The notes under the pieces are model-generated. The model was not told the DNA's origin. It made no database searches and saw only the letters and a list, made by a program, of their open reading frames with translations. From assembly GCA_028715175.1 (NCBI GenBank), contig JAQUSJ010000003.1, positions 1 through 54,971 on the forward strand: a DNA stretch of 54,971 nt. The letters run 5' to 3'. This stretch comes from Candidatus Daviesbacteria bacterium (lineage in GTDB: Bacteria; Patescibacteriota; Microgenomatia; Daviesbacterales; UBA10151). The first letter of the stretch is position 1. The number at the start of each line of letters is the position of its first letter. Positions 175 through 13,317 of the stretch are shown here, piece by piece. Made by a program: the position numbers and the translations under genes.

Positions 175-180
175 TTTACG

Positions 181-406
181 GCGTTGAAGAGGAAAAGTAA
201 GCAAGGTGACGTTTTATAGCAAGAAGGATAGCTGAAAGCCTTTAAATTTAATCTTGTCTGAAGAGAGCCTCCGAGCAAAGATCGAAGAAATCTGTCCAAC
301 AGAAAGTAGGTCTTCTTAATAAAGAGTATCTTATTAATTACTTAATAAGATAAATTAGGGTGGTACCACGGGTTAATCTCGTCCCTAGTACAAGGACGAG
401 TTTTTT
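181..406 (+). promoter_or_regulatory. T-box riboswitch leader, probable arginine (AGA) specifier, controlling the argG operon
   Basis: Stem I spans 181-277. It has K-turn halves GCGTTGA and CGAGCA, an AGTA element at 196-199, a distal loop AAGG-ATAGCTGAAAG-CCTT at 224-242, and a specifier loop GAAG-AGA-G at 260-267 directly 5' of helix CCTC (268-271), which pairs with GAGG (189-192). Stem III is TCTTATTA/TAATAAGA at 329-350. The conserved T-box sequence AAATTAGGGTGGTACCACGG is at 352-372, followed by the terminator at 378-406. Confidence 0.8.
378..406 (+). terminator. Intrinsic terminator of the T-box expression platform
   Basis: CTCGTCC (378-384) pairs with GGACGAG (394-400) around a 9-nt loop, followed by TTTTTT at 401-406. 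TAGGG of the T-box sequence can pair instead with CCCTA (383-387) to form an antiterminator. Confidence 0.75.
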
Positions 407-426
407 ATACAAAAACTCCAAAAAAA

Positions 427-1650
427 ATGGGAAATAAAGATAATCATGTGAATAAAGTAGTATTGGCCTTTTCAGGAGGTCTAGATACCTCATATTGTGC
501 TCTTTATCTAAAAGAGCAAGGTTATGATGTAGTGACTGTTACCGTTGATACGGGTGGTTTTAGCAAAGTAGAGATAGATAAAATTGCTGCACAATCTAAA
601 TTATTAGGTGCGAAAAACCACTACCTTATTAATGGTAAAAGTCAGCTCTATAATCAGTTTATTTCATATATCATCAAAGGGAATATCTTGCGGGGTGGAG
701 TTTATCCTCTTTGTGCCGGTACCGAGAGATTGGTTATTGTCCAGAAATTGGTTGAAACTGCCAAAAAAGTAGGAGCTGAATACATTGCTCATGGATCAAC
801 TGGTGCAGGTAACGATCAAATCCGGTTCGATGTTGCCTTGCAAGTTTTGGCGCCTGATTTAAAAATTCTTACCCCGGTTAGAGATTCAGGTATCAAGCGC
901 GAGGAAGAATTTGAATTACTGAAAAAATATCATTTACTAGGTTCCTTTACATCAAGTGCTTATTCAATCAATCAGAGTCTTTTGGGAGTTACTGTTAGCG
1001 GAGAGGAAACTAAAGGTTCTTGGGATACATTTCCTGAGGAAGTTATTTTTAGTGTTACTCCACTAAACAAAACACCTCAATCCCTGGTAGAATTTGTTCT
1101 ATCCTTCAAAAAAGGATTGCCTGTTGCCATAGATAATAAGAAAATGAGTGGTATTGTCATCATGGATTATCTTGGAAAGATCGGCAGCCAACATGGTATA
1201 GGTACAGGCATTCATTTAGGCAATACAATTCTTGGTATCAAGGGTAGAGTTGCTTTTGCAGCGCCTGCTGCGATTATTCTTATTAAAGCGCATAAAGAAT
1301 TGGAAAAGTTGGTACAGACAAAATGGCAATCATTTTGGAAAGAAACGCTAAGTGATTTTTACGGCAATTTATTACATGAGGCTCTTTATTTTGATCCAGT
1401 TATGCGCGATTTAGAAGCGATGATTGATAGCAGTCAGCAAAATGTGACAGGTGATGTTAAAGTTCAACTTTTTAAAGGCAATATTATTATAAATGGCTGT
1501 CAGAGTCCTTATTCCTTGATGGATCCTAAGATCGCTACTTATGGGGAGGAGAATATAATGTGGGACAGCCGGGATATTGCTGGGTTCTCAAAGATATACG
1601 CAATACCGGGTATGTTGGCGACTAATGTTAAAAGAAAGAAGAAAATATGA
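427..1650 (+). CDS. argG: Argininosuccinate synthase
   Basis: N-terminal VVLAFSGGLDTS is the PP-loop ATP pyrophosphatase motif. Also present are AHGSTGAGNDQIRF and a 407-aa length typical of ArgG. Confidence 0.9.
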   Translation: MGNKDNHVNKVVLAFSGGLDTSYCALYLKEQGYDVVTVTVDTGGFSKVEIDKIAAQSKLLGAKNHYLINGKSQLYNQFISYIIKGNILRGGVYPLCAGTERLVIVQKLVETAKKVGAEYIAHGSTGAGNDQIRFDVALQVLAPDLKILTPVRDSGIKREEEFELLKKYHLLGSFTSSAYSINQSLLGVTVSGEETKGSWDTFPEEVIFSVTPLNKTPQSLVEFVLSFKKGLPVAIDNKKMSGIVIMDYLGKIGSQHGIGTGIHLGNTILGIKGRVAFAAPAAIILIKAHKELEKLVQTKWQSFWKETLSDFYGNLLHEALYFDPVMRDLEAMIDSSQQNVTGDVKVQLFKGNIIINGCQSPYSLMDPKIATYGEENIMWDSRDIAGFSKIYAIPGMLATNVKRKKKI

Positions 1651-2684
1651 AGAAAATTAAATTAGATAAAATTCCGTCCATTTTTAAGAATGTTGATTTG
1701 TCAGACGAGGTCTGGATCGACAATCATGTTACTGCCGAAGAAGGAATGATGGTAGTAATTCAGGCAGAAGAAAATTCTGGTAAAAAAGACGTCATGGAGT
1801 TTGTTGGTGGACGTCTGGGTGTAACTCTAAAAGGTGATATTTTTGCCGGAGTATTAGGTTACAGAAAGGCACTAGTGGAATTTGCTGGAGTGGTTCCCGG
1901 GAAAATTAAAGTCGGGGATCAGTTATATCTGCTTTGCGAAAGTGGACTTATTGGGGATGTTTCTGGTGTTTATGAAGCTTGGGGTAAACCGATGAAAGTG
2001 AAGATATTGGGAGCGCTGGTGGATGAAAAAGGATGTTCAAAGACTCTCAAAAGCTATGTATTACCAAAAATCAAACCTATTCAAAAGAACATTCCGATGA
2101 TTTGTTTTGTGGCTACCAGAATGGATTCCGGGAAAACCACCATGGCTTGTAAGATAGCAAATTATTTCAAACAGCATGGTAAAAAGATCATAGCTATAAA
2201 GTCTACCGGAGTCAGTTATCTGCAGGATCCGTATAAGTTATTGGATAACGGAGTTGAGCAGGTTTTGGATTTTACGGACATGGGTTTACCTTCAACCTGT
2301 AACGGTAATGTAAAAGAGGTTCTTGAATCGACTGTTAACCTTATTAATCATGCTAAATCAGTGGATCCGGATTTAATCCTTATGGAATTCGGCGAAGGTA
2401 TTCTTGGAGAATATCATGTGCTTGATATACTAAAATACAAACCTATTAGAGATCAATTTTCATATGTGGTTTTGGCAGCTAATGATTTAACAGGCATATT
2501 GGGAGCTAAAGAAATACTCAAGAAAAAATGCAAACTGGAGATCGACATGGTGACCGGTCCGATTGCCAACAGTCATTTAGGTGTTCAGTTAATCGAGAAA
2601 TATTTCCAACTGGATGCAGAAAGTAACCAGCATGAAATTCACAAAACTATAGCTTCAATTAATAAAAAACTTTTCTCTGGATAA
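1647..2684 (+). CDS. Uncharacterised two-domain protein with a Walker-A-like motif (possibly DUF1611/DgcN-like), embedded in the arg operon
   Basis: The ATG overlaps the argG stop (ATGA at 1647-1650). Blocks seen are VATRMDSGKTT, then IKSTG, LDFTDMG and LMEFGEG. The protein is 345 aa. Family placement is from memory only. Confidence 0.45.
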   Translation: MKKIKLDKIPSIFKNVDLSDEVWIDNHVTAEEGMMVVIQAEENSGKKDVMEFVGGRLGVTLKGDIFAGVLGYRKALVEFAGVVPGKIKVGDQLYLLCESGLIGDVSGVYEAWGKPMKVKILGALVDEKGCSKTLKSYVLPKIKPIQKNIPMICFVATRMDSGKTTMACKIANYFKQHGKKIIAIKSTGVSYLQDPYKLLDNGVEQVLDFTDMGLPSTCNGNVKEVLESTVNLINHAKSVDPDLILMEFGEGILGEYHVLDILKYKPIRDQFSYVVLAANDLTGILGAKEILKKKCKLEIDMVTGPIANSHLGVQLIEKYFQLDAESNQHEIHKTIASINKKLFSG

Positions 2685-2690
2685 ACCTTC

Positions 2691-3734
2691 ATGAAACATT
2701 TTTTAACAACCTCAGATTTTGGACAGCAAGAATTGATGAATATGATAAAAACTGCTTTAGTGATGAAGAAATCAGGATGGAAAAAATCACTTCAAGACAG
2801 GATTCTCAGCATGTTTTTTTTCAATCCATCGTTGCGAACCAGATTGTCGTTTATTACCGCCATGGATAAGTTGGGTGGTCTGGCCGTGGATTTATCTTCT
2901 GGTAGTGGCGGTTTTCCGTTTGAATTTAAGGAGAATGCAGTCATGGATAAAAACACTATTGAACATGTTAAAGAAGCAGTGCCTGTGATATCGCGCATGA
3001 GTGATGCTATTGCTGTTAGAGCAAGCGAGCTAGTGACTGCTTCTTCAAAAAGCGTTAAAGTTCTTTCATGGGATGAGGTCAAGAAAGATACTACTATACA
3101 GAGTTTTGCCAAATACGCTACGGTGCCTGTTGTGAATATGGAATCAAATGTTTATCATCCCTGTCAAGGTTTAGGTGATGCCATGACTATTATGGAAAAG
3201 TTAGGTAACCCTAAAGGTAAAAAGTATGTTCTAACATGGGTTTATCATCCCAAGGCTCTACCAATGGCTACGGCGAATTCTCAGATTCTCTCTGCTTGTG
3301 ATTTGGGAATGCAAGTTACCATAACTTATCCTGAAGGATGGGATCTTGACGAGGATATTATCAATACAGCCAAAGCAAGAGCCAGACAAACCGGTGGGTC
3401 TTTAACGCTGGCTAACTCTCAGCAAGAAGCATTTCAGGATGCCCATATTGTATGCGCCAAAAGCTGGGGATCTATCAGGCACTATGGTGCTTGGTCTAAA
3501 GAAGATAAGATAAAGAAAGGATTAAAACACTGGATAGTTGACAAACAAAAAATGGATCTGACTGATAATGCCTATTTTATGCATTGTCTTCCTGTCAGGA
3601 GAAATGTTGAAGTGACGGATGAGATTTTAGACAGCTTATCTTCGATCGTGATTGATGAGGCAGAAAATAGAATGTGGATTCAAATGGCGATACTGGATTA
3701 TTTAATAGGTAAAAAGGATAAAAACCATGGATAA
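2691..3734 (+). CDS. argF': N-acyl-L-ornithine (acetyl/succinyl) carbamoyltransferase-like transcarbamylase
   Basis: FFNPSLRTR replaces the usual STRTR, alongside HPCQ and MHCLPVRRNVEVTD. The N-terminus KHFLTTSDF and C-terminus VIDEAENRMWIQ match the AOTCase/SOTCase subfamily rather than classical OTCase. Confidence 0.75.
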   Translation: MKHFLTTSDFGQQELMNMIKTALVMKKSGWKKSLQDRILSMFFFNPSLRTRLSFITAMDKLGGLAVDLSSGSGGFPFEFKENAVMDKNTIEHVKEAVPVISRMSDAIAVRASELVTASSKSVKVLSWDEVKKDTTIQSFAKYATVPVVNMESNVYHPCQGLGDAMTIMEKLGNPKGKKYVLTWVYHPKALPMATANSQILSACDLGMQVTITYPEGWDLDEDIINTAKARARQTGGSLTLANSQQEAFQDAHIVCAKSWGSIRHYGAWSKEDKIKKGLKHWIVDKQKMDLTDNAYFMHCLPVRRNVEVTDEILDSLSSIVIDEAENRMWIQMAILDYLIGKKDKNHG

Positions 3735-5211
3735 ACCTAAACTTGAAGCATCATCATTTATAGTTTCTGGAGAACAAATGGAATTAGATATAGAAATGGC
3801 GCCTTTTGATATTTGGGGGACAATAGTTCATGTGTTGATGCTTGTTAAGCAGGGAATTATTGATAAAGCTGGAGCTAAAGCTTGTCTTAAGGCTCTAATT
3901 GAGATAGATAAAGAGATGTGGAATGGTCAATTTGCTATTGATCCAAACAAAGGCGCCCAGTTAACCCTGGAAGCAAAACTAGTAGAGAAAGCAGGAGAAG
4001 CTGCCTACAGTATCCATACTGGCCGGAGCCGAAACGATCAGGTGATGGTAGTGGAGCTTTTGTATCTCAGGGAACAAATGCTTAAACTTTCCGAAAACGT
4101 AATTTCTCTCGTAGAATCTTTGCTTAAACTTGCAATTACCCATAAACAAACGGTTATGCCAGGGTACACTCATATGCAGCCAGGGAAAATTACAACAGTC
4201 GGACAGTGGGTAGCAGCATACCTTAATGGTTTCTTAAGGACATTGGATACGATTAAGTACTATCTTGATCTTTATGATATGAATCCTTTAGGAGCTTGTG
4301 AATCTTATGGTACATCTTGGCCGCTTGATCGGGAATTTACTGCCGAATACCTTGGTTTTGCCAAAGTATGGGAAATTCCACAGGACGCTATTTCTTCCCG
4401 AGGTTTTGCCCAACTTGGTTATTTAACTGCCATTTCGGAAATTTGCCTTGTAGCGAGTAAACTAAATGAAGATTTAATTTTATTCAGTACTTTTGAATAT
4501 GGAATGATTGAACTTGGAGATGAAGTATCTCAAAGGATGCATTCCATCACCGGCTCGTCCGTGATGGCACAGAAGAAAAACCCCGATGTTTTGGAAATTA
4601 TACGTTCAACCACTCCTCAGATAATTGGTTTTTGGTCGATTGTGGCCAACATTTTGTCATCTTTACCCATGGGTTATAACCGGGATAGCAGGGAGAGTAA
4701 AAAATTTATTCATCTGGGTTTAACTAAAACCATTTCTGTTGTAGGCTCTTTGCAAAAAGTAATCTCTACCCTAAAGGTTAACGAAAAAAGAATGCTAGAG
4801 TTGGCCACCTCAAATTATTCATTAACTACAGACTTGGCAGATTTTATATCTCAGAAGACCAAAATAGGATATAGACTTATTTATCAAATCATCGGTCAGC
4901 TAGTTGATGAGGCTATTAAGCAAGGCAACCCCTTAAGTCAAATTTCTGCTGCGGAGATTATACAAAAAGCAGCGGAGTTAAATTTAAAGATTAAAATTTC
5001 CGACGAAGAGATTACTAAGGCTGTGGATCCCAAGTTGGTAATTATTAAGAGGAAAAACGTGGGTGGAAGTAATTCAGTCACAATGGATAAGCTATTGGAT
5101 GATGCGAGCAAAAATATTAAAAAACAATTATCTTGGATTCAACAAAAACAAACTACAATCAAGGATGCTCGCCAGAAGACAGATAAATTAGTTAAAGAAA
5201 TGATTTCCTAA
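3727..5211 (+). CDS. argH: Argininosuccinate lyase
   Basis: Fumarate-lyase signature GSSVMAQKKNPDVLE, plus HTGRSRNDQ and GYTHMQPG. The start overlaps the argF' stop by 8 nt. Confidence 0.9.
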   Translation: MDKPKLEASSFIVSGEQMELDIEMAPFDIWGTIVHVLMLVKQGIIDKAGAKACLKALIEIDKEMWNGQFAIDPNKGAQLTLEAKLVEKAGEAAYSIHTGRSRNDQVMVVELLYLREQMLKLSENVISLVESLLKLAITHKQTVMPGYTHMQPGKITTVGQWVAAYLNGFLRTLDTIKYYLDLYDMNPLGACESYGTSWPLDREFTAEYLGFAKVWEIPQDAISSRGFAQLGYLTAISEICLVASKLNEDLILFSTFEYGMIELGDEVSQRMHSITGSSVMAQKKNPDVLEIIRSTTPQIIGFWSIVANILSSLPMGYNRDSRESKKFIHLGLTKTISVVGSLQKVISTLKVNEKRMLELATSNYSLTTDLADFISQKTKIGYRLIYQIIGQLVDEAIKQGNPLSQISAAEIIQKAAELNLKIKISDEEITKAVDPKLVIIKRKNVGGSNSVTMDKLLDDASKNIKKQLSWIQQKQTTIKDARQKTDKLVKEMIS

Positions 5212-6176
5212 TGGCATTGACTGGGCAATTTTGCCCCAAAATCCGGTCTGTCAAAAAAGCCTAGGGCTGCGACTGCCCCGATTAAACCCCGTTCTTCGCC
5301 AATTGGGTAAAGTGTTACCCTGGATTCTTTGCACACTCTTTTCAGCTTTTGAAGATCCTCAAACAAATGGAACTTTAGATCTGTACAAAAATCTATTAGA
5401 TTTTCTGGTAAAGAAAACCCGTCAAAAGTAGCCATCCCTGTTTGAGGACTGACAGTATATTTTTTTAATAGCTTAATAAACTCATCGATGATTTGTTTTT
5501 TCTGGATGTCTCGATCATAAATAAAGCTGATCAAAGTGCTTAGACAGTTTTTGGTCTTATGAGGATTGTTGGGAAAGAGCTGTATGTTATTATGAGTGGC
5601 ATAATAGACATTGAATTTTTTTCCTATGTCAATGGATATGTTATGAGCTAATGCATAAGTGGCACCTTCTGACTCGTTATCCGTATCATCCACCCCGATC
5701 AGCAAAAGTTTTTTAGCAGGCAGTACGATTCTTCCTATACCAAGCTTGTTACCTCCTCCTTCTTGGATAACCTGTACTTTTTCTACTCCTTCGGCTATAC
5801 CTCTGGAAAAGGAAGCGCTAACTCCGCCGCCACCGAAACCTGCAAAAGTGATAGCAACTTTGTCTTTTGTGACTAAACATTCTTCTATGCCGATAGGAGC
5901 AAAAGACGGAACTAAATTAAGTTTGGCTTTACCCTGATTGAGGATGTAAATAGTCATATTTCCTTCCCGGTAGCTTTTTTCGACAATTGAACTGGTTAAT
6001 GGAAAATGTAATGCCCGCCAGCCTTCAATAAAAAAGCCATTTCTGGGGCCATAATCTTCAATGTACATAACTCTCTTAGGAGTTGGGTCAACTACGGCCA
6101 AAATTTTATTGTAAGCCATGACCCATTTTCTGTTTTTCAATTTTGATTTAAGTTCTTGTGGGGTATATGTGGTCAT
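5208..6176 (-). CDS. Fusion protein: unknown Gly-rich N-domain plus a TiaS TCKD (DUF1743)-like C-domain
   Basis: IGVDDTDNESEGATYALA, LFPNNPHKTKNC and GEERGLIGAVAALG are colinear with remembered TiaS blocks GIDDTDSxxGMCTTYLA, NPxIPxKTRGNG and GRGLIGALAAVG. The start was chosen at the ATG at 6176-6174, 1 nt after the upstream stop. The tool ORF extends to 6236. Confidence 0.5.
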   Translation of the reverse strand: MTTYTPQELKSKLKNRKWVMAYNKILAVVDPTPKRVMYIEDYGPRNGFFIEGWRALHFPLTSSIVEKSYREGNMTIYILNQGKAKLNLVPSFAPIGIEECLVTKDKVAITFAGFGGGGVSASFSRGIAEGVEKVQVIQEGGGNKLGIGRIVLPAKKLLLIGVDDTDNESEGATYALAHNISIDIGKKFNVYYATHNNIQLFPNNPHKTKNCLSTLISFIYDRDIQKKQIIDEFIKLLKKYTVSPQTGMATFDGFSLPENLIDFCTDLKFHLFEDLQKLKRVCKESRVTLYPIGEERGLIGAVAALGFFDRPDFGAKLPSQCH

Positions 6177-6177
6177 A

Positions 6178-7149
6178 CTAATTGTGTTTGCCTGGGAAGA
6201 TTTCTGCCAAGAGACAACGGGCACTGCCTCCTCCAATTGTTTCTATGGTGGGAATATTGACAGGAACAATATCTCCATGATTCAACAGTTGTCTCTTTTG
6301 GTTCTCAGTAAAGGCGTCATAGGCTGTAGTGGACATTATGATTCTATTTCTTCCCAAAATAGACTGCATATCCAATACATTTCCGCAAAAAGAGTATAAT
6401 TGGTTTAAGGTAATTGGGATTATCTCCACCCCTAATGTTTCTAGTTCGCCCTGAACACTATGACGTTCTTGAGTATTCCTTATCGCGTCGAGACATACAA
6501 CGGAAAACTCCGCACCAATACTCATAACTACATTGGTGTGATAAATTGATTCTCCGCCTCTACCATATGCATGAAATTTGATTGGCCGATAGCCTGTTTT
6601 TGCACAAAAATCATCCAAAACTTGATAGGAAGTTCTGGCTGACTCATGGGCAAAGACTACTTTTCTTCTTCGATCGAATACCAAACTGCCGGTACCCTCA
6701 AGGAAGCGCCCGGACTGTTCATGATATGTTAAATCCAGTACATGAGATGAATCGGTTGCTATCCAGGGAACCAAACGTCTCACTTGGTCTAATTGTCTTT
6801 CCGCCCTTCTATTAAGAGCAAGCATAGGATATAAAATGACATCTATACCATCTAATTCGCTGTGAAAGGAAATCCAGTTATTGGGAAAGACTGCATCAGG
6901 AGTATTTACACCTGTTCTGCTGGGACACACGACTACTTTAATTCCATTTCCGCGCAATAAATCTACCACTGTGTTAAATTCTGTCATGGCTTTATGGCAA
7001 ATTTCTCCGGAATCTGGAGATAGCTTACTTTGGAAAGTATTAGTACTGGCTGTCTGGTCATTGAAACCAAAGCTATCAGGGCTAACCATTAAGACGATAT
7101 CTGTTAATTGAGTAGTTCTAGTCGATAAAGGCGTTTCTGATATAGCCAT
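6178..7149 (-). CDS. CtlX/amidinotransferase-like guanidino-group-modifying enzyme (citrulline/arginine hydrolase family)
   Basis: The C-terminal GGGSARCLLAEIF carries the catalytic Cys typical of the arginine deiminase/DDAH/amidinotransferase superfamily. HTNVVMSIG and the LMVSP N-terminus resemble the arginine-deiminase-related (CtlX) family. Confidence 0.65.
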   Translation of the reverse strand: MAISETPLSTRTTQLTDIVLMVSPDSFGFNDQTASTNTFQSKLSPDSGEICHKAMTEFNTVVDLLRGNGIKVVVCPSRTGVNTPDAVFPNNWISFHSELDGIDVILYPMLALNRRAERQLDQVRRLVPWIATDSSHVLDLTYHEQSGRFLEGTGSLVFDRRRKVVFAHESARTSYQVLDDFCAKTGYRPIKFHAYGRGGESIYHTNVVMSIGAEFSVVCLDAIRNTQERHSVQGELETLGVEIIPITLNQLYSFCGNVLDMQSILGRNRIIMSTTAYDAFTENQKRQLLNHGDIVPVNIPTIETIGGGSARCLLAEIFPGKHN

Positions 7150-7217
7150 ATTATTGAGCGTAAAGGATATTACATCCGAAGTTTGTGATTGTCAATGTTT
7201 CGAGCTGGTTTAAAGTT

Positions 7218-7724
7218 TTAAGAAGCTGGAGTAGGGTGAGTGGGGAAAGGATAAAATGGACGTGGCAAAATGGTGATCCTTATTCCTGTAGCAGGATCCA
7301 AATGATCAAAGGCTGCTCCAAAACCTATTACAGTTATGGATTTTAAGATGTCTGCGTGGAGAGGGTTATTACTGTCAGTCATAGATTTAACAGCTGCTAG
7401 GAGAGTAGATGGATTCCTGTCTATAATCCAATATGATCCTTCACCATTTTGCGCTCTGCGTGAACTGAGATTTTCTAGTATCTGTCTTGCTCTTTCTTCT
7501 GGTGAACTGCATAGAATGATAGGTAAAGAATCTGGTACTCCAGCTGCAGTTAATAATGCACGTGTTCTTTTCACCATCTCTGTATCTGGTAGATTTTGTT
7601 CGCGATTAGGATAGATCCCTCCGCATAAGGAGTTAGCTCTTTTGACAAAATCAGATATTTCCTTAGGTCTTATGTCTGTGATGTCACCAACAATGATCAC
7701 TCTTTCAGTTCCAATAGAGCTCAT
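7218..7724 (-). CDS. Hypothetical protein, no recognisable motif
   Basis: A 168-aa ORF on the same strand as its arginine-related neighbours. The coding call rests on length and context only. Confidence 0.4.
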   Translation of the reverse strand: MSSIGTERVIIVGDITDIRPKEISDFVKRANSLCGGIYPNREQNLPDTEMVKRTRALLTAAGVPDSLPIILCSSPEERARQILENLSSRRAQNGEGSYWIIDRNPSTLLAAVKSMTDSNNPLHADILKSITVIGFGAAFDHLDPATGIRITILPRPFYPFPTHPTPAS

Positions 7725-7780
7725 ATAGAAAAGACTTTATACAATATCTGATAGTTATTTTCAATACCCTGAAATATTTC

Positions 7781-8887
7781 TTAATCTTTAGCCCAGGCAA
7801 AGTAAACCTGTTCGAAAATACCTGATGCAGTGCTAATTTGTTTAATATCTGCTGATTCATCTGTTGTGTGAGCCTGAGAGGTTTCTCCTGGGCCAAAAAT
7901 CACCCCGTCAATGCCTAAATTTGTAAAAAACCCCAAATCATTGGAAGCATCATTTATTGCTATTTTTATTCCTGGGACTACACTTTGGAATACTTTGACA
8001 ATTTTTGAATCTGGGTTGGTGTAGCCGGCCGGACCTGGGGGATGAAGTAGCGATAATTTAATACCCCGCTTTTGTGCCAGCTGTTTGATTCTGTCAAAGG
8101 CCTTTTCATGGTAGCCGGGAATAGTGCGTAAGTCAAAAGTAGCCCGACAATAGCCGGCTGTTTTATTGGGAGAATCTGATTTAGCTTCAATTGAGGTTGA
8201 GGTAATAGCGGGAGGAACAAACTCAGAGTCTTTAAACTTTTTCTGCCAGCTCAAATTTTCTGTTTGCAAATCGTTTATAAAATTATTCATTTCGGCAATC
8301 GCATGAGACTTTATAGCTGAGGGTCTGGAGGAGTGAGTAGAAGTGCCTGTCTTTTCTGCTTTAATAAAAAAGTGTCCCCGGTGTCCATATTTGACAGTGT
8401 TAAGATCGGTTGGTTCTGCAAAAACAGCAGCCAGCTCACTGTATTGTTTGAGATAACCCTTTTTTTCAAACCACTCTGTAAATTGTTTTGTTCCTGCTCC
8501 GTCTGTTTCTTCTTTCACCACAAAGGTAAACCAAACATCTGTGGATAGTTGCTTTTTGATTAAGGATTTGGCAGTTTCCATCATGGCTAATACTCCACCT
8601 TTCGCATCAGAAGCACCTCTGCCAAAAATTCTGCCATTGACAATTTCACCTTCCCATGGATTGTGTTTCCATCTTATAATATCGCCTATATCCACAATAT
8701 CCACATGACTATTAAAAATAAATGCTCGTTTTTGATCTTCGCCATCCAGTTTGACTATTAAATTATCTCCTTGGAAAAAAGGTTTTATGCCAGCATCTTC
8801 AAGCTGAGTCTTAATATATTCTAAGATCAGCTTTTCTTTGCTTGAATATGATTGGAAATTTATTAATTTTCTTAAGCTATTTATCAT
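7781..8887 (-). CDS. M20 family deacylase (ArgE/DapE-like; candidate acyl-citrulline/acyl-ornithine deacylase)
   Basis: NSHVDIV, GRGASDAKGG and VVKEETDG are the M20 metal and catalytic motifs. The protein is 368 aa and starts 9 nt downstream of argS. Confidence 0.75.
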   Translation of the reverse strand: MINSLRKLINFQSYSSKEKLILEYIKTQLEDAGIKPFFQGDNLIVKLDGEDQKRAFIFNSHVDIVDIGDIIRWKHNPWEGEIVNGRIFGRGASDAKGGVLAMMETAKSLIKKQLSTDVWFTFVVKEETDGAGTKQFTEWFEKKGYLKQYSELAAVFAEPTDLNTVKYGHRGHFFIKAEKTGTSTHSSRPSAIKSHAIAEMNNFINDLQTENLSWQKKFKDSEFVPPAITSTSIEAKSDSPNKTAGYCRATFDLRTIPGYHEKAFDRIKQLAQKRGIKLSLLHPPGPAGYTNPDSKIVKVFQSVVPGIKIAINDASNDLGFFTNLGIDGVIFGPGETSQAHTTDESADIKQISTASGIFEQVYFAWAKD

Positions 8888-8896
8888 CTCTTTATT

Positions 8897-10783
8897 TTAC
8901 ATCCTTTCAGGCGCTTCAATGCAAAGCAAGTCTAGGCCGTTTTTCACAACTTGAGCTGAGGCTTGCGTCAAACGCAGAAGACTGTTCCTTCGTACTGAAT
9001 CCGGTTCATTAACGATACGTACTCTGTCGTACAAGGTAGTAAATAAATCAGCAGCACGGAAGATGTATTCTGCAAGTATATCAGGTCTGCTGGTTTGCGC
9101 GGCTCTAGTAATTGCTTCAGGGAATTTACTAAGATGTTTAATGAGGGCGTTTCCTGGCTGATTAGTCACTTCGATTGGTAAATCGTACCGTAATTCCATT
9201 TGTTCCTTCTGAGCTCGTTGCAGTAGGGCTCTCATTCTGGCATATGCATATTGGATATAAGGAGCGCTGCGTCCTGTGAAGGATAAAGCGCTGTCCCAGT
9301 CAAATTTAATCGATCTTTCTCTACCTTGTCCCAGATCAAAGAATACAACCGCCCCAACTCCTACTTGTCTGGCGATAGTTTCTTTTTCCTCTCTAGATAG
9401 ATCCCTGCTTAAATCATCAATTTTTTGTCTGGCTCTGTCAACAGCTTCAGTTAGCAAATCTTCTAAAAAAATCACTCTTCCGGCTCTGGTGGACATCTTT
9501 CCTTCTGGCAACCTGATCATGCCGAAATGAACATGTTCTGTTTGAGGACCTGTATTCCCCGTCATCATATCGAAAGTGGCAAAAATTTGTCGAAAATATC
9601 TTTGTTGATCTTCACCAACTACATAAATAATTCTGTGGGGATTAAACCAAGCGCAGCGCGCTACCAGTGTGGCTAAATCTCTGGTGGAGTATAAGCTTGT
9701 GCCGTCTGTTTTTTGAACTACTAATTTATCAAGGTTTTTCATAGATAAATCAACCACAATTGCGCCAGTTTCATCTATTGAGGCAATGTTTCTTTCTCTC
9801 ATATATTCTAAAACACGTGGAATCATAGGTATATAGAACGATTCTCCCAGCATATATTCATACCGGGATCCGAGTACATCATATACTCTTTGGAATTCAG
9901 CTAAGCTTTTTTGGGTAGCCCACTTTAAAAGTTCAATTGCTCTTTCGTCTCCAGATTCCAATCTTTGAAACCATCTTCTACCTTCTCGTTCCAAAGCTGT
10001 TTCCACATCCTCGTTTGCATCTAAACCCGATCTTTCTCGTTCGGCGATTTTTTCTTTCTCTACTTCCTCATGAATACGAACATAGAGTTTATATAGACCT
10101 TTGACCGGATCAGTGCCCTCACTTAATTCTTCATAATCATCTGCCCATAGTTCATGAGCTCTTGCCAACATACCGAATTGAGTTCCCCAATCGCCTAAAT
10201 GATTATCACGAATAACTTTATAACCGATGGCTCTGTTTATTCTGGCAAGCGATTCGCCGATTATCGTTGATCTTAAATGGCCGATACTCATGTATTTGGC
10301 TACGTTAGGGGATGAGCAGTCAATTACCACTGTTTCACCTTCTCCGATGTTTTGTTCACCATAGTGGTCTTGATATGTTTCGACTTCAGAGATGGCTTGA
10401 TTTCCGAATATATGCATATTAAGCAGGAAATTAAGATATCCTTTTTGGGCGATAGCTTCTTGAATAGTTGGCGGATTGGGATCTGAATTAAAACCCTCAG
10501 CCAACTCTTGAGCAATTTGCGCAGGACTTTTTCTTAATCTTCCTGCCATTTCATGACAAATTACGGTTAAATCAGCTGCTACATTAGGAGATGGTTCGGT
10601 TGCCCGCATGCCAGCCTCGGCCAAAACAGGATTAAGCCCGACAAGATGAGATATTAAATCTCTTTGTGTAGCAGTCCAAATATATTGGTTACTTCGAGGC
10701 ATATTTAAAAGATCCGGTTTAGTAATTGGGATATTACTCTCGGACAAAACAGGGACAGGAATACCTAAATATTGTTCGGTCAT
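8897..10783 (-). CDS. argS: Arginyl-tRNA synthetase
   Basis: The class I HIGH region reads SSPNVAKYMSIGHLRSTIIG, with an anticodon-binding C-terminus. The start was moved to the ATG at 10783-10781, which forms an ATGA overlap with the arcA stop. Confidence 0.9.
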   Translation of the reverse strand: MTEQYLGIPVPVLSESNIPITKPDLLNMPRSNQYIWTATQRDLISHLVGLNPVLAEAGMRATEPSPNVAADLTVICHEMAGRLRKSPAQIAQELAEGFNSDPNPPTIQEAIAQKGYLNFLLNMHIFGNQAISEVETYQDHYGEQNIGEGETVVIDCSSPNVAKYMSIGHLRSTIIGESLARINRAIGYKVIRDNHLGDWGTQFGMLARAHELWADDYEELSEGTDPVKGLYKLYVRIHEEVEKEKIAERERSGLDANEDVETALEREGRRWFQRLESGDERAIELLKWATQKSLAEFQRVYDVLGSRYEYMLGESFYIPMIPRVLEYMRERNIASIDETGAIVVDLSMKNLDKLVVQKTDGTSLYSTRDLATLVARCAWFNPHRIIYVVGEDQQRYFRQIFATFDMMTGNTGPQTEHVHFGMIRLPEGKMSTRAGRVIFLEDLLTEAVDRARQKIDDLSRDLSREEKETIARQVGVGAVVFFDLGQGRERSIKFDWDSALSFTGRSAPYIQYAYARMRALLQRAQKEQMELRYDLPIEVTNQPGNALIKHLSKFPEAITRAAQTSRPDILAEYIFRAADLFTTLYDRVRIVNEPDSVRRNSLLRLTQASAQVVKNGLDLLCIEAPERM

Positions 10784-12006
10784 ATGTTTGATCTTAAAAG
10801 CTGTCCGGTCATACAATGTGCGGCACCATAACCTTTGGTGCTCTCAAATAAATCGGTATGTACCACTTGTTTACCCAGCCCTCTCAGTTGATTATTTGTA
10901 TCAGTATTATAGCGTAGCGGCACAAATATGACACATCTCCCGCTGCTATCTTCTCCTTTGAGTAGAAAGTTACAGCCAAATCCTTTTTGTTCTTCTTGTG
11001 GAATAATCACGATATTATCTTCTGTTTGCTCCAGAAAGTCAATGAAGCTACCGAAACCATCATTTATAACTAAATTATCCCCAAAACTATTTAAGAATCT
11101 GATTCTTCTTCTTCGCGCTTCTTCTATACAAACAGCTATTTCTCTTTTGCCTACTGGATTTGAGAAAGTATCAAGATGCATGGAGTCTTGTTGTTCGCTA
11201 AAAGATCGGCCGAACGGATCTTCGTCTTCTACTACGGCGAATTTCAGACAGCATTGTTCCAGTTGTGGTTTGAGAGCCTGATATATTCCAACTGCTGCGC
11301 CTAATGTGGTACGTGTGCCTACACCGACAAACACAGTACCATTATGAATATAGGCGTCACCACCTTCAAAGGTTTCGCCAGAAGGGATGATAATTGTTGT
11401 GTGTGGTGCCAAATGTTGCTGGTAGACGAGTTCGTACAAATCAACTTCATGTCGTCTAATAGCCTTGGCCATTCGCGAAACTACCCTTGTGTCGCATAAG
11501 ACATTCATATGATCTCTGCCGTAGAGACTATTACCCAGAGGAAACTGTGGGTCAACGCTCAAAGTTTGATTTAAGTTCAAAGCTCCTTCCTCTCCATACC
11601 GAACAATGTCTTGTTCTACAAGCATTGTTATTAAATCAGCAGAATCTTCTACATGAATATCATATTGATTTTGAATAGCTTGAGCTCTACCAACCATCGC
11701 AGCGATTACTGCGTCTTTTCTTAATGGTCTTGGTTTTAAGGTTTCGGCCAAGAGATCCCTTACCATAAGAACTTTTACTCCGTGATCTTGTAAGATAGCA
11801 GCATAATTTATTCCTTCCTGTCTGGCAGTAATTACATCAAATGACTGATAAAATAGAGAGATTGCTTTAGGATAACACTGGGCTAAAACAGCCTCCGCGC
11901 CAATGGCTCCCCAAGTAGAGACAGCTCTCAAGGGTTCAGCTTCATCGAAAATACCTATTTGAATAGAATTTGGGGGCAGATCCGACTCAAGCGAATGAGC
12001 GATCAT
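10780..12006 (-). CDS. arcA: Arginine deiminase family protein
   Basis: 408 aa, with GGDAYIHNGTVFVGVGTRTT, HLDTF and C-terminal GAAHCMTGQLLR carrying the catalytic Cys. Confidence 0.7.
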   Translation of the reverse strand: MIAHSLESDLPPNSIQIGIFDEAEPLRAVSTWGAIGAEAVLAQCYPKAISLFYQSFDVITARQEGINYAAILQDHGVKVLMVRDLLAETLKPRPLRKDAVIAAMVGRAQAIQNQYDIHVEDSADLITMLVEQDIVRYGEEGALNLNQTLSVDPQFPLGNSLYGRDHMNVLCDTRVVSRMAKAIRRHEVDLYELVYQQHLAPHTTIIIPSGETFEGGDAYIHNGTVFVGVGTRTTLGAAVGIYQALKPQLEQCCLKFAVVEDEDPFGRSFSEQQDSMHLDTFSNPVGKREIAVCIEEARRRRIRFLNSFGDNLVINDGFGSFIDFLEQTEDNIVIIPQEEQKGFGCNFLLKGEDSSGRCVIFVPLRYNTDTNNQLRGLGKQVVHTDLFESTKGYGAAHCMTGQLLRSNI

Positions 12007-12106
12007 CTTTAAAAGAGTAGTTATACTAGATTTGGATAGGTGTTGTCAAACCAAGGTATATAAGATAAATATCCTGGATACGGAGTTTTATGGTAGACTA
12101 GAAAGC

Positions 12107-13147
12107 ATGAAGCGGATACTTACTGGAGATCGACCTACAGGTAGGTTACATTTAGGCCATTACGTTGGGTCACTCAAAAATAGGGTCAGGTTGCAAGATG
12201 AATATGAGTGTTTTTTCATCATTGCAGATTTGCATACCTTAACCACTAAACCAGAGAAAACAAAAGAGTTAAAGGACAATATTTATCAAATGGTGTTGGA
12301 TTATTTATCTATTGGCATTGATCCAAAAAAGTCTACTGTCTATATCCAATCCCAGATTCCGGAAGTTGCAGAACTGGCCCTAATTTTTGGAAATTTAACC
12401 ACAGTTCCAAGGCTTGAGCGCATGCCGACTTTAAAAGATGTAATGAGAGATGCAGATATACAAGTTCCTTCGTATGGACTCTTGGGTTATCCGGTTTTGC
12501 AGGCGGCAGATATTTTGATGGTTAAAGCTAATTTAGTGCCTGTGGGAAAAGATCAGGTATCTCATGTTGAAGTAACCAGAGAAGTGGCTAGGGATTTTAA
12601 TAGAATTTATCGGTCCACCTCCGAGGAGTCAAAGCCCACCTCGGAGGTGTCTAGTCAGGTTTTGCCAATTCCTGAGGTTTTGGTTGGGGAAATTCCCACT
12701 TTGCCCGGTACAGATGGAGCAGTAAAAATGAGTAAATCTGCAGGTAATGTGATTAATTTATCGGATTCTCCTGAAGAAGTAGAGAAAAAAGTCATGGGTA
12801 TGTATACAGATCCAACCAGGATTCATCCTACAGATCCAGGGCATGTGGAGGGTAATCCGGTATTTACATATTTGGATGCTTTTGGAGCTGATTCTGACAA
12901 ACAACAAATAACTAAGTACCAAGAACTATACAGACAAGGCCAGGTTGGGGATATTGAGGTAAAAAAGTATCTGGTTAAAGTTTTAAATAATTTCCTGGAT
13001 CCAATAAGAGAAAATCGAGCTCGATACGAGCGAGATCCTGAGCTTGTCGAACGGATCTTAAAAGAAGGTACTGCCAAAACCAGAACAGAAGCCCAAAAAA
13101 CCCTCCTTGAAGTCAAAGCTGCCATGAAGCTGGATTATTTTGTATAA
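12107..13147 (+). CDS. trpS: Tryptophanyl-tRNA synthetase
   Basis: GDRPTGRLHLGHYVG is the HIGH motif and KMSKS is present. The start was chosen at MKRILTG. It contains an in-frame hairpin insert at 12615-12649. Confidence 0.9.
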   Translation: MKRILTGDRPTGRLHLGHYVGSLKNRVRLQDEYECFFIIADLHTLTTKPEKTKELKDNIYQMVLDYLSIGIDPKKSTVYIQSQIPEVAELALIFGNLTTVPRLERMPTLKDVMRDADIQVPSYGLLGYPVLQAADILMVKANLVPVGKDQVSHVEVTREVARDFNRIYRSTSEESKPTSEVSSQVLPIPEVLVGEIPTLPGTDGAVKMSKSAGNVINLSDSPEEVEKKVMGMYTDPTRIHPTDPGHVEGNPVFTYLDAFGADSDKQQITKYQELYRQGQVGDIEVKKYLVKVLNNFLDPIRENRARYERDPELVERILKEGTAKTRTEAQKTLLEVKAAMKLDYFV

Positions 13148-13289
13148 AGCAGCTTGTCGCAGTACAAAAAATCACTCGCACGGTAGGGACTTGCTCGTTT
13201 GTGTTAGTTTTGTGTCGATCGGTTTCTGGTCCGAGATTTAGTTAGCACAAAACTAACAACATTTTTTGTTTACTTACGACTTCGCTGCC
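13148..13289 (+). repeat. Structured intergenic repeat, copy 1 (family also at 51431-51570 and 52163-52306)
   Basis: Shares the 5' block GTACAAAAAATCACTCGCAC...GCTCGTTTG and the 3' block CAACATTTTTTGTTTAC...ACTTCGC with the other copies. An internal perfect stem pairs 13201-13214 with 13246-13258. Confidence 0.7.
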
Positions 13290-13317
13290 TTTTAAGGTTT
13301 TATTGTGAAGCTGTTTG

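Follow-up and report, generated by a model that had tools for sequence, protein, structure and literature searches.

TiaS, the tRNA(Ile2) 2-agmatinylcytidine synthetase, activates the C2 carbonyl carbon of cytidine, which is flanked by two nitrogens. It also has protein-kinase (autophosphorylation) activity, the modified residue being Thr18. Methanogens contain another conserved protein, "methanogenesis marker protein 11" (Mmp11, TIGR03280), and a literature search on the family name, the accession and the Pfam/domain names found no paper on its function. To our knowledge, the late steps of coenzyme B biosynthesis likewise still lack assigned genes. Two systems of arginine and citrulline metabolism are also pertinent to the locus described here. 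The arginine synthetase ArcE belongs to the P-loop NTPases and is a relative of cyclic 2,3-diphosphoglycerate synthetase (PMC11032458). The putative citrullinase CtlX is recognised by a ureido-binding signature, and in other bacteria its gene adjoins those of ornithine consumers, including ornithine N-succinyltransferase (PMC9007349).

Results

A bacterial member of the Mmp11 family

The window, i.e. the whole stretch of DNA that was analysed (54,971 nt), carries FtsH, and the nearest homologues are named as phyla of the candidate phyla radiation (CPR), which indicates a bacterial host; this host is a CPR bacterium of the Microgenomates type. No tRNA genes were found within the 54,971-nt window. 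Judged by eye only, some N-terminal sequences in the window look like PolA, RecF, Pth1 and CarAB. The gene under study and its parts are as follows.

5208..6176, minus strand: Mmp11-family gene, 322 aa, start at the ATG at 6176
5721..6176, minus strand: N-domain, alpha/beta and family-specific, roughly residues 1-152
5799..5840, minus strand: Gly-rich loop GFGGGGVSASFSRG, residues 113-126
5211..5720, minus strand: TiaS-like kinase domain (TCKD) into which a ferredoxin-like domain (FLD) is inserted, roughly residues 153-322 (PF22641 and PF08489, Foldseek, PDB profile search)
5679..5690, minus strand: DDTD, the metal/ATP motif of TiaS, D163-D166, aligned to D8-D9-T10-D11 of Archaeoglobus fulgidus TiaS
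5658..5660, minus strand: T173, aligned with TiaS Thr18
5544..5558, minus strand: K207-T208-K-N210-C211 motif, the counterpart of KTRGN in TiaS

The NCBIfam profile TIGR03280 matched the protein with 278.8 bits against a cutoff of 255.8 (E=4.4e-83), from residue 22 to residue 316 of 322, which corresponds to profile positions 2-291 of 292. The two-domain layout of the family (about 300-330 aa, with the family-specific N-domain followed by TCKD/FLD) was found, colinear with the archaeal members. All family-invariant residues were present (E40, W53, G113/116/118, R125, G141-142, DDTD, GAT, T208, N210, G297 and G300), invariance having been computed over 106 homologues, 73 from CPR and 33 from archaea. 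The product of 5208-6176 is a genuine bacterial member of the uncharacterised Mmp11 family. The family is not restricted to methanogens, as the window is bacterial and 73 sequences of the CPR clade could be aligned, and JGI calls it an "imperfect marker". In the annotations of NCBI and JGI, CPR homologues already bear the name "methanogenesis (imperfect) marker protein 11"; the gene family itself is therefore already described. The ATG at 6176 was favoured over the 303-aa gene call of the source (P0001) because the first 19 residues are conserved in the alignment of CPR homologues.

A preliminary description, made from the DNA alone, had presented the protein as a stand-alone TCKD fused to a domain that could not be placed. 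The five peptides that it quoted (LLIGVDDTDNESEGATYALAHNI, LFPNNPHKTKNC, GEERGLIGAVAALGFF, FAGFGGGGVSASFSRG and QEGGGNKLGIGR) were all found in the translation, and the TiaS-like half was correctly recognised. The idea of a fusion did not hold, since the TIGR03280 match at residues 22-316 includes the Gly-rich N-domain.

The N-domain packs against the TiaS-like core and has several invariant or near-invariant residues (E40, W53, H57, G113, G116, G118, R125, G141 and G142). Within its Gly-rich loop, G113, G116, G118 and R125 were invariant among the 106 sequences, and G115, V119 and A121 were at least 90% conserved. Modelled alone, the domain reached a pLDDT of 93.6, and a Foldseek search of the PDB found no solved relative (best match E=0.32, probability 0.15). 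A phmmer search against 1.84 billion representatives gave 48 matches, of which 47 were of Mmp11 size (about 290-355 aa) or shorter; the remaining one was weak and covered 30 residues inside a 935-aa protein. As far as these searches of sequences go, the N-domain is an integral part of the Mmp11 family and occurs only there.

The C-terminal half resembles TiaS

The C-terminal half resembles TiaS far more closely than chance would allow. Pfam TiaS_TCKD (PF22641) matched with E=4e-7 (30.6 bits against a gathering cutoff of 27). The match to TiaS_FLD (PF08489) was borderline (E=1.6e-4, 22.2 bits against 21); the FLD also lies within the structural alignment to 3amt/3amu. When the Mmp11 family profile was run against the PDB, the TiaS chains 3u02, 3amt, 3au7 and 4rvz were matched at E=3e-9 to 8e-6. 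The AlphaFold model of the protein (pLDDT 95.4) was matched by Foldseek to TiaS (3u02, 3amt, 3amu, 5xob and 4rvz) with E~1e-7 and a probability of 1.00, over 150-170 columns and with an rmsd of 2.5-3.9 A. The similarity to TiaS that the preliminary description had proposed was thus borne out by both profiles and predicted fold.

The TiaS blocks cited in the preliminary description were present in the A. fulgidus sequence, where DDTD and Thr18 could be aligned. The DDTD motif was invariant in the 106 sequences, and so was T173, which pairs with Thr18 in an ungapped HMMER alignment to 3amt/3au7; the claim that the autophosphorylated Thr is kept therefore stood, and neither element was lost in orthologues. 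In the following motif T208 and N210 were invariant in the 106 sequences, and conservation was at least 90% at K207 and C211, the N-C pair after KT being specific to the Mmp11 family. The NCBIfam equivalog model for TiaS (NF040849) gave 26.7 bits, its cutoff being 600. As had been stated, the tRNA-binding OB-fold and zinc ribbon of TiaS are absent, because this model was matched only at positions 3-152 of 422 and the protein ends at residue 322.

Gene neighbourhood in the window

The preliminary description had placed the gene at the end of a six-gene unit on the minus strand, and this was confirmed. Its other members are listed here, together with a convergent operon.

10780..12006, minus strand: divergent arginine-deiminase-family enzyme (ADI-like; Pfam ADI 88 bits, full length)
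8897..10816, minus strand: arginyl-tRNA synthetase, ArgS (Pfam tRNA-synt_1d and DALR_1)
7781..8887, minus strand: M20 deacylase of the ArgE/DapE family (Pfam Peptidase_M20 and M20_dimer)
7218..7724, minus strand: 168-aa ORF, conserved in the closest (Daviesbacteria) loci only, with 43% identity in L001 and L089
6178..7149, minus strand: CtlX-type hydrolase, a putative citrullinase with the guanidino-modifying-enzyme fold (NF046062 and Pfam DDAH_eukar)
175..5211, plus strand: convergent arginine-biosynthesis operon (Pfam, NCBIfam, Rfam)
175-389, plus strand: T-box leader (Rfam T-box, 104.3 bits)
427-1650, plus strand: argG (Pfam/NCBIfam)
1647-2684, plus strand: CPR-specific P-loop protein
2691-3734, plus strand: N-acetylornithine carbamoyltransferase, AOTC (NCBIfam, 397.8 bits against 288)
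3727-5211, plus strand: argH, whose stop overlaps the Mmp11 stop

The ATG of Mmp11 sits 1 nt past the stop of the upstream ORF (TAGtATG; aatTAGtATGacc), again as had been noted. The product of this ORF scored 339.8 bits with NF046062 (CtlX; cutoff 334) and E=1e-89 with DDAH_eukar. The CtlX signature (FPNN, HTN and a C-terminal Cys) was found in it and in all seven other CPR neighbour entries checked, which represent five distinct loci. It had been called a CtlX-like guanidino hydrolase; it is indeed CtlX-like, but the FPNN/HTN ureido signature makes it of the citrulline type rather than the guanidino type. The ADI-like protein scored just 73-76 bits with the NCBIfam arcA models (cutoffs 414-489) and retains the guanidino-binding Asp residues ([FY]xRD, HLD) and the Cys of HC[MS]T. 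The motifs of the two hydrolases fit a conversion of arginine to citrulline by the ADI-like enzyme (Asp kept) and of citrulline to ornithine by the CtlX-type enzyme (Asn-Asn). The M20 protein matched TIGR01910 (ArgE/DapE) with 183 bits, under the cutoff of that model, and the 168-aa ORF had no family match in Pfam or NCBIfam. The synteny of the arginine-biosynthesis operon recurs in L001/L089 and L084.

Homologous loci in CPR bacteria and archaea

The linkage to ctlX, arginine deiminase and argS that had been suggested is conserved in related bacteria: in 9 of the 16 distinct CPR loci, and in five gene orders, Mmp11 adjoins a CtlX-type gene and has an ADI-like gene in its vicinity. ArgS and an M20 deacylase often occur in the same loci, the M20 gene being in or near five of the nine linked ones, as well as in the short contig L086. 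No arginine genes were nearby in the other 7 of the 16 loci; in three of these (and in the short contig L088) the arrangement was GatB-x-Mmp11 with convergent MiaA and MiaB. The CPR sequences form one clade, diverse and apart from the archaeal members.

Between the two sets (73 CPR and 33 archaeal sequences), 42 positions were at least 90% conserved in both, and one position only was conserved differently, Y174 of the CPR proteins being W in archaea. The archaeal genes have homocitrate-synthase/homoaconitase-type genes, TPP enzymes and radical-SAM (rSAM) genes as neighbours. Outside Methanobacteriales, a TPP-enzyme-like or rSAM gene was immediately beside Mmp11 in 50 of 91 loci, and 20 of the 91 had, within 6 kb, either an AksA-like gene or a HacB whose loop reads YLRT/S. 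The order in locus L166 was rSAM-Mmp11-rSAM-DUF7714-AksA-like-HacA-HacB-AksF2-TPP enzyme. By gene order, the archaeal clusters look like coenzyme B clusters. In Methanobacteriales the isomerase small subunit beside Mmp11 has a LeuD-type loop (YLVL/YLIY), and the synteny there may therefore reflect leucine genes.

Discussion

The best reading of these data is that Mmp11 would be a ligase or kinase that phosphorylates a carbonyl oxygen with ATP. Its substrate would be some small molecule from the Arg→Cit→Orn branch rather than tRNA. We consider it rather probable that the protein belongs to this general class. By analogy with TiaS, the oxygen of a carbonyl or carboxyl group would be phosphorylated from ATP, and a C-N bond would form when an amine displaces the phosphate. 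A small-molecule substrate is favoured because the archaeal relatives, with 42 positions in common, are found in small-molecule clusters of the coenzyme B type. The absence of the OB-fold and zinc ribbon, and an N-domain with no solved relative, nucleic-acid-binding or otherwise, also favour a small molecule over tRNA.

Mmp11 would act together with its neighbours. The ADI-like enzyme would convert arginine to citrulline, and the CtlX-type enzyme citrulline to ornithine and carbamate. Mmp11 would take the ornithine so made and ligate a carboxylic acid to it, giving an N-acyl-ornithine, the kind of substrate handled by the adjacent N-acetylornithine carbamoyltransferase and M20 deacylase. The presence of AOTC and of the ArgE-like M20 enzyme in the same supercluster counts for this idea. 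In the archaeal orthologues the parallel reaction might be the amide ligation of 7-mercaptoheptanoate with threonine, or a phosphorylation. Several points count against this scheme. Ornithine acylation, carbamoylation and then deacylation alongside CtlX would be a futile cycle, and the M20 enzyme would reverse the proposed product. A ligase forming N-acetylornithine at the expense of ATP would be unusual, acetyl-CoA being the normal donor. Furthermore, nearly half of the CPR loci (7/16) lack nearby arginine genes, and the coenzyme B label of the archaeal clusters comes from gene order. Taken as a whole, the scheme of class, neighbouring hydrolases and ornithine ligation is a tentative one, and an ornithine ligase in the specific sense is possible but doubtful. 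The general idea of the preliminary description, an ATP-dependent step on an arginine- or citrulline-like substrate, is plausible and unproven.

A different use of the same chemistry, which we regard as unlikely, would be the phosphorylation by Mmp11 of the ureido oxygen of citrulline (or of carbamate), much as an arginine synthetase works. Together with its CtlX-type and ADI-like partners, it could then drive normally irreversible hydrolyses towards citrulline or arginine at the expense of ATP, or yield ATP in arginine breakdown. Mmp11 would in that case be analogous, but not homologous, to ArcE or ArgG. The ureido carbon is of the same type as the TiaS target, cytidine C2 between two nitrogens, and the invariably adjacent partner is of a ureido-binding type (FPNN/HTN or FINN). 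ArgS comes directly after the ADI-like gene in five loci (the window, L084, L082, L171 and L172), which suits arginine production better than destruction, and argG/argH were not within 6-10 kb in most linked loci. ArcE shows that citrulline and arginine can be interconverted in an ATP-coupled reaction, near equilibrium (PMC11032458). On the other side, archaeal orthologues with the same 42 conserved positions are in clusters without ureido chemistry, canonical argG and argH genes preceded by a T-box are present in the window itself, and in TiaS the amine attacks in the same active site, which makes a second enzyme unnecessary. Moreover, proteobacterial CtlX functions without Mmp11, and argGH are still required there for the use of citrulline (PMC9007349).

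That Mmp11 is a TiaS-like base modifier of tRNA (e.g. tRNA-Arg or tRNA-Ile2) or rRNA, with an arginine-derived amine from the neighbouring enzymes as donor and the N-domain in place of the OB-fold and zinc ribbon, seems to us improbable. TiaS, the sole characterised relative, does act on tRNA, and translation genes recur near Mmp11 in unrelated lineages: ArgS in the Microgenomates type, GatB/MiaA/MiaB in another group of CPR loci, and, in loci of the Methanomicrobia type, TruD/Pth2. The CPR members are also basic (median pI 9.2), but this may simply follow the overall composition of CPR proteomes, and the median pI of the archaeal proteins is close to neutral (6.6). The domains with which TiaS holds tRNA are missing, the N-domain was unlike any known RNA-binding fold in the Foldseek search of the PDB, methanogens already possess a full TiaS, and the strongest archaeal operons are of a cofactor type rather than a translation type.

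Even less probable is a regulatory protein kinase or switch, in which autophosphorylated Thr173 would control the adjacent hydrolases or ArgRS and no product would be made. The invariance of T173, the autophosphorylation of TiaS itself and the tight coupling of the gene to CtlX would agree with this. However, an elaborate invariant N-domain with Gly-rich loops and 42 positions kept in both bacteria and archaea have the look of a catalytic pocket, in archaea the gene is found in biosynthetic operons, and target or receiver domains are absent. We give hardly any credence to the view that the CPR protein makes a coenzyme-B-like acyl-threonine(-phosphate), perhaps in connection with life beside methanogens, and that the arginine linkage is incidental: the score is above the TIGR03280 cutoff and the conserved positions are nearly identical between the clades, but Aks-type, TPP-enzyme or rSAM partners were seen in none of the CPR loci examined, the CPR clade is monophyletic, diverse and apart from the archaeal one, and a CtlX/ADI linkage recurring in five gene orders is not incidental.

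Returning to the small-molecule ligase or kinase, a conserved "methanogenesis marker" to which the literature searched assigns no function can now be given a predicted ATP-dependent catalytic core of the TiaS type. In archaea Mmp11 is inside operons of the coenzyme B type, and its CPR sister clade appears rewired into an arginine-citrulline-ornithine module. The TiaS kinase fold would then not be confined to tRNA modification. CPR bacteria, with their tiny genomes, live on scavenged metabolites, and Mmp11 points to an unrecognised ATP-dependent step of the arginine family beside the putative citrullinase CtlX. The widest version of this proposal, to which we assign a rather low probability, is that the family is an unrecognised class of small-molecule ATP-dependent carbonyl-O kinases/ligases built on the TiaS core. 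Its archaeal branch would provide a missing late step of coenzyme B synthesis (the 7-mercaptoheptanoate-threonine amide bond and/or its phosphorylation). Its CPR branch, with the CtlX-type partner, would carry out a new reaction, coupled to ATP, on citrulline or ornithine, at the ureido or amino group. If so, the CPR branch might represent another arginine/citrulline synthetase, not homologous to the first, or a form of arginine breakdown that conserves energy. Both branches are thereby open to concrete and cheap biochemical tests.

Comparison with known systems

The closest described system is archaeal Mmp11 (TIGR03280), to which the protein is colinear over its full length, with the same two-domain architecture and length and 35-41% identity; the 42 common positions include DDTD, GAT and KTxNC, as well as those of the GGGGV..R loop and, towards the C-terminus, the G..G motif (G297/G300). 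It differs in that the present host is a CPR bacterium and not a methanogen, that the bacterial sequences form a clade of their own, and that Trp replaces Y174 in archaea. The neighbours also differ: AksA/Hac/AksF-type, TPP-enzyme, radical-SAM or YcaO/TfuA genes in archaea, and CtlX-type, ADI-like, ArgS and M20 genes in CPR.

With TiaS (PDB 3AMT/3AMU/5XOB and the P. furiosus fragment 3U02) the protein shares the TCKD+FLD fold, DDTD, the equivalent of Thr18, KT and the C-terminal GxGLIGA motif. ATP-dependent phosphorylation of a carbonyl oxygen followed by attack of an amine is probably common to both. In contrast, identity is just 18-22%, the OB-fold and zinc ribbon are lacking in Mmp11, its 150-residue N-domain is absent from TiaS, the N-C pair after KT is its own, and its substrate is probably not tRNA.

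The resemblance to ArcE (T. kodakarensis TK2200; PMC11032458) is a possible functional analogy only, through ATP-coupled chemistry at the ureido/guanidino carbon of citrulline/arginine and a gene near arginine-catabolic genes; the fold of Mmp11 is TiaS-like, with no P-loop and no homology to ArcE. Finally, AruFG (ornithine/arginine N-succinyltransferase) and ornithine cyclodeaminase occupy the same place beside ctlX and take citrulline-derived ornithine (PMC9007349). Their folds are unrelated, and succinyl-CoA serves AruFG as the donor where Mmp11 would rely on ATP and a free acid; the analogy comes from gene order only.

The gene at 5208-6176 encodes a member of the Mmp11 family

The protein encoded at 5208-6176 on the minus strand (322 aa) matched the TIGR03280 profile of methanogenesis marker protein 11 (Mmp11) from end to end (residues 22-316 against profile positions 2-291 of 292), with E=4.4e-83 and 278.8 bits for a curated cutoff of 255.8. 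All the peptides quoted in the preliminary description were found in its translation. The resemblance of the C-terminal half to TiaS, the archaeal tRNA(Ile2) agmatidine synthetase, claimed in that description, proved to be real. The Pfam model of the TiaS kinase domain (TiaS_TCKD) was matched with E=4e-7, above its gathering score, and that of the ferredoxin-like domain (TiaS_FLD) with E=1.6e-4; a 106-member family profile matched the TiaS chains of the PDB with E=3e-9 to 8e-6; and Foldseek aligned an AlphaFold model of the full protein (mean pLDDT 95.4) with 3U02, 3AMT, 3AMU, 5XOB, and 4RVZ over 150-170 columns with a probability of 1.00. In an ungapped HMMER alignment with Archaeoglobus fulgidus TiaS, D163-D166 of the window protein corresponded to D8-D9-T10-D11, T173 to Thr18, and KTKNC to KTRGN. 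The OB-fold and zinc ribbon were indeed absent, the TiaS equivalog model being covered at positions 3-152 of 422 alone. The lack of these tRNA-binding domains and the low equivalog score (26.7 bits for a cutoff of 600) rule out a TiaS orthologue.

The idea that a TiaS domain had been fused to an unknown domain did not hold, as the Gly-rich N-terminal domain lies inside the TIGR03280 match and is conserved in archaeal members too. In this domain, E40, W53, G113, G116, G118, R125, G141, and G142 are invariant and H57 is conserved at 90% or more. A model of the N-domain by itself (pLDDT 93.6) found nothing significant in the PDB with Foldseek (best E=0.32), and phmmer against 1.84 billion representative proteins gave 48 matches, 47 of which were Mmp11-sized proteins or fragments, the other being a weak 30-residue match in a 935-aa protein. 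The N-domain thus appears to be specific to Mmp11 and to belong to a fold class without a relative in the PDB. No further Pfam family was found in the window protein at E values up to 10. Fusions that might hint at a function were found neither among the 120 homologues listed (all 260-350 aa; 37 more unlisted) nor among the N-domain matches, and a literature search on Mmp11, TIGR03280, and DUF1743/TCKD/PF08489/PF22641 yielded nothing relevant to the function of the family.

Three starts compete for this gene: the ATG at 6176, a TTG that initiates a 342-aa ORF, and the start of the collection's own gene call (P0001, 303 aa), which to judge by its length appears to lie at Met20 (region 6118-6176, minus strand). 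The last two are less likely, because the closest homologues conserve residues 4-19 and AlphaFold models this segment with high confidence. P0001 looks truncated by 19 N-terminal residues.

Distribution of Mmp11

About 83 of the 120 homologues listed from a 5.8-billion-protein collection shared 43-77% identity with the window protein, and the named ones among them were from CPR bacteria (candidate phyla radiation, Patescibacteria), i.e. Daviesbacteria, Levyibacteriota, Roizmanbacteria, and Portnoybacteria. Amesbacteria and Absconditabacterales were also represented among the genome loci with Mmp11. Archaeal homologues came next (35-41% identity), their hosts including Methanobacteriales, Methanococci, Methanocella, Methanofastidiosa, Archaeoglobales MAGs, Methanodesulfokora, and a MAG labelled Hydrothermarchaeota. 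In a distance tree, 73 CPR-type sequences were monophyletic and separate from 33 archaeal ones, sequences with at least 42% identity being taken as bacterial and gene context confirming this for about 20 loci. As many as 42 positions were conserved at 90% or more in both clades and a single one differed between the clades in its conserved residue (Tyr174 in CPR, Trp in archaea). This comparison of sequences speaks for a shared chemistry and for related classes of substrate in the two clades.

Gene neighbourhood in the window

The six-gene minus-strand unit of the preliminary description was borne out.

Features of the window around Mmp11
10780-12006, minus strand: arginine deiminase (ADI)-like gene, first in the unit
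8897-10816, minus strand: ArgS, TTG-initiated ORF, second
7781-8887, minus strand: M20 deacylase of the ArgE/DapE type, third
7218-7724, minus strand: 168-aa orphan ORF without family match, between the M20 and CtlX genes
6178-7149, minus strand: CtlX-type hydrolase, fifth, directly before Mmp11
5208-6176, minus strand: Mmp11, 322 aa, start ATG at 6176
175-389, plus strand: T-box leader (Rfam RF00230, 104.3 bits), directly upstream of argG
1647-2684, plus strand: P-loop protein of 345 aa (Walker A ATRMDSGKTT), between argG and AOTC

As had been noted, the ATG of Mmp11 is one base past the TAG that ends the preceding ORF (6178-7149). The ADI-like and ArgS ORFs share 37 nt as listed (10780-10816), and the 168-aa ORF is conserved (43% identity) in the closest Daviesbacteria loci only. 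The CtlX-type protein scored above the CtlX equivalog cutoff (339.8 for 334) and bears the FPNN and HTN substitutions, which mark a ureido (citrulline) rather than a guanidino substrate according to Price et al. (PMC9007349), who present CtlX as a putative citrullinase only. In the ADI-like protein, the Asp residues that bind the guanidino group and the catalytic Cys are retained, and the score is far under the arcA equivalog cutoffs.

Facing this unit is a convergent, T-box-led operon with the order argG, CPR-specific P-loop protein, N-acetylornithine carbamoyltransferase (AOTC; 397.8 bits for a cutoff of 288), and argH. Depending on the register, the specifier region of the T-box, UGAAGAGAGCCUC, could present the codon AGA (Arg, which suits the operon) or GAG (Glu). 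The argH stop codon (TAA, 5209-5211) and the Mmp11 stop codon (TAG, complement of 5208-5210) have two bases in common, which leaves no room for terminators between the genes. A promoter and terminator scan of 5000-12300 gave counts no higher than in shuffled sequence, and no tRNA gene was found within the window.

The P-loop ORF retains its position in L001/L089 and L084, the loci that share the gene order of the window. Among 120 of its 159 homologues, those with a name were all 'hypothetical proteins' of CPR/Patescibacteria, most being without a name. With no Pfam match above the gathering cutoff, no NCBIfam match, and no PDB relative, it gave no informative match to show a likeness to ArcE; possibly it is an enzyme of the arginine pathway that has gone unrecognised. 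Elsewhere in the window, dihydroorotase-like, aspartate carbamoyltransferase-like, carA-like, and 1093-aa carB-like ORFs were recognised by eye at 38925-45489 (plus strand). This looks like a pyrimidine/carbamoyl-phosphate cluster, in which case the organism would be able to make carbamoyl phosphate de novo.

Gene neighbourhood across CPR bacteria

The flanks were usable in 16 distinct CPR loci, nine of which had a CtlX-type gene adjoining Mmp11 and an ADI-like gene one or two genes off, in five different arrangements. Conservation of the linkage to arginine genes, made a touchstone in the preliminary description, therefore held for much of the CPR clade though not for all of it, the seven other loci having no arginine genes nearby.

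Arrangements in the linked CPR loci
ADI-ArgS-M20-(x)-CtlX-Mmp11: window with L001/L089, and L084
CtlX-Mmp11-ADI(-ArgS): L003, L171, L175
Mmp11-CtlX-ADI: L004, L174
ADI-ArgS-GME376-Mmp11: L082
Divergent, with ArgS, ADI, and CtlX on one strand and Mmp11 on the other: L172

In one of the nine, the CtlX-type gene encodes a relative 376 aa long that carries FINN and a C-terminal Cys-Cys. ArgS directly follows the ADI-like gene in five loci, and at least five CPR lineages have the two side by side in the same direction, a recurrent pairing that would be odd for a purely catabolic deiminase. An M20 gene is in or near five of the nine linked loci, and also in the short contig L086. Three of the seven unlinked loci, as well as the short contig L088, show the order GatB-small ORF-Mmp11 with convergent MiaA and MiaB; this subgroup with translation or tRNA-modification genes (L081, L091, L092, L088) shares 43-47% identity.

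A gene of the metallo-beta-lactamase fold lies directly upstream of Mmp11 in L006 (123-992; Absconditabacterales) and L086 (200-1165); in L171 (4938-5861) it is found one position further up, ahead of the CtlX-Mmp11 pair; a fragment of such a gene is near ArgS in L004. In L082, the genes after Mmp11 (8994-12925) encode an AlaDh_PNT_N protein, which may be of the N5-(carboxyethyl)ornithine synthase type, together with a methyltransferase, a racemase for Asp/Glu, and an aminotransferase of class III; this too points to ornithine-centred metabolism.

Archaeal Mmp11 and a proposed role in coenzyme B biosynthesis

The archaeal Mmp11 nearest to the CPR clade was that of L166, the MAG labelled Hydrothermarchaeota, which is also the clearest of the archaeal contexts; there it belongs to a run of nine co-directional genes (7170-16186, plus strand), mostly overlapping or a few bases apart.

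Genes of the L166 run (7170-16186, plus strand), in order
1: radical SAM protein
2: Mmp11 (367 bits)
3: radical SAM protein (LipS2 / MSMEG_0568-like)
4: DUF7714 (XcbA family)
5: homocitrate/isopropylmalate synthase (AksA-like) without regulatory domain
6: HacA-type large subunit
7: HacB-type small subunit
8: AksF2-type dehydrogenase
9: acetolactate-synthase-like TPP enzyme

This looks like a complete candidate operon for coenzyme B biosynthesis, including candidates for the late steps. To our knowledge, the genes for these steps (thiol formation, ATP-dependent threonine ligation, and phosphorylation) are unassigned, and we found no assignment for them in the literature on coenzyme B biosynthesis. 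A truncated IorA-like TPP protein is encoded after Mmp11 in Methanocella and in many contigs of the Methanomicrobia type; in another archaeal group, an acetolactate-synthase-like TPP enzyme with HacA and HacB precedes it; in Methanofastidiosa an AksA-like gene comes after it; and in MAGs of Archaeoglobales and Methanodesulfokora it is followed by the radical SAM gene of L166, with YcaO and TfuA nearby. A TPP-enzyme-like or radical SAM gene adjoined Mmp11 in 50 of 91 archaeal loci (Methanobacteriales-type synteny left out), and 20 of these 91 had, within 6 kb, a HacB whose loop reads YLRT or YLRS, or else an AksA-like gene. We take the YLRT loop to mark the methanogen homoaconitase of the 2-oxosuberate pathway of coenzyme B, as opposed to isopropylmalate isomerase. 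The Methanobacteriales order (HacA-like-HacB-like-IPMDH-NifS-like-RibH-Mmp11, the NifS-like label being a reading of the sequence) was discounted as coenzyme B genes and not counted, because its small subunit bears a LeuD-type YLVL/YLIY loop.

With gene order as the sole basis, we infer a role of archaeal Mmp11 in the biosynthesis of coenzyme B. The enzyme would phosphorylate a carboxyl oxygen, with subsequent attack by the threonine amine, and/or phosphorylate the threonine hydroxyl, as the most natural role for a TiaS core.

Proposed function of the window protein

Assignment to Mmp11 is not new: the family is known, and several CPR members are already named 'methanogenesis (imperfect) marker protein 11' by NCBI and JGI. 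As far as our searches show, the new points are the setting of the CPR clade within a conserved CtlX/ADI/ArgS module, the confinement of the N-domain to this family and its lack of a solved structural relative, and the location of the archaeal clade in coenzyme-B-type operons. Together they make the function of this long-unassigned 'marker' directly testable.

Beyond its fold, motifs, family membership, and conserved neighbourhood, all of which are observed, the window protein is probably an enzyme that would phosphorylate a carbonyl or carboxyl oxygen with ATP, an amine then displacing the phosphate, and that would act on a small molecule of the arginine-citrulline-ornithine branch. If the motifs of its neighbours are taken at face value, the ADI-like enzyme would convert arginine to citrulline and CtlX would convert citrulline to ornithine and carbamate, the ArgE-like deacylase being a possible further source of ornithine or citrulline. 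The gene order of the window matches this pathway order, Mmp11 coming at the end and being coupled to CtlX. In proteobacteria, ctlX adjoins genes for ornithine-consuming enzymes, including an N-succinyltransferase (PMC9007349). Based on these two points and on the N-acyl-ornithine carbamoyltransferase of the window, our leading specific proposal, a tentative one drawn by analogy, is that Mmp11 could be an ornithine-consuming amide ligase forming N-acyl-ornithine. It is weakened by the futile cycle that might arise with CtlX, AOTC, and M20, and by the need for ATP where acyl-CoA would be usual.

Activation by Mmp11 of the ureido oxygen of citrulline (or of carbamate) is rather unlikely. It would allow arginine or citrulline to be formed at the expense of ATP, or energy to be conserved as in ArcE (PMC11032458). 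Chemically, the ureido group comes closest to the cytidine C2 of the TiaS reaction, the neighbouring partner is ureido-binding, and the ADI-ArgS pairing fits also, but the archaeal contexts and the canonical argG and argH of the window do not. Mmp11 is not itself the arginine synthetase ArcE, which is a P-loop enzyme. We consider a tRNA or rRNA target improbable: translation genes recur near Mmp11 in three lineages, but an RNA-binding module is not evident. As to charge, the median isoelectric point was 9.2 in CPR members and 6.6 in archaeal ones. A regulatory autophosphorylating switch is very improbable, and the formation of a coenzyme-B-like product in CPR bacteria seems the most unlikely of all.

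The proposed ligation to N-acyl-ornithine is modelled on the ligation of an acyl group to threonine in archaea, itself a predicted reaction. As to TiaS, it has an OB-fold and a zinc ribbon, whereas the Mmp11 of the window has neither.
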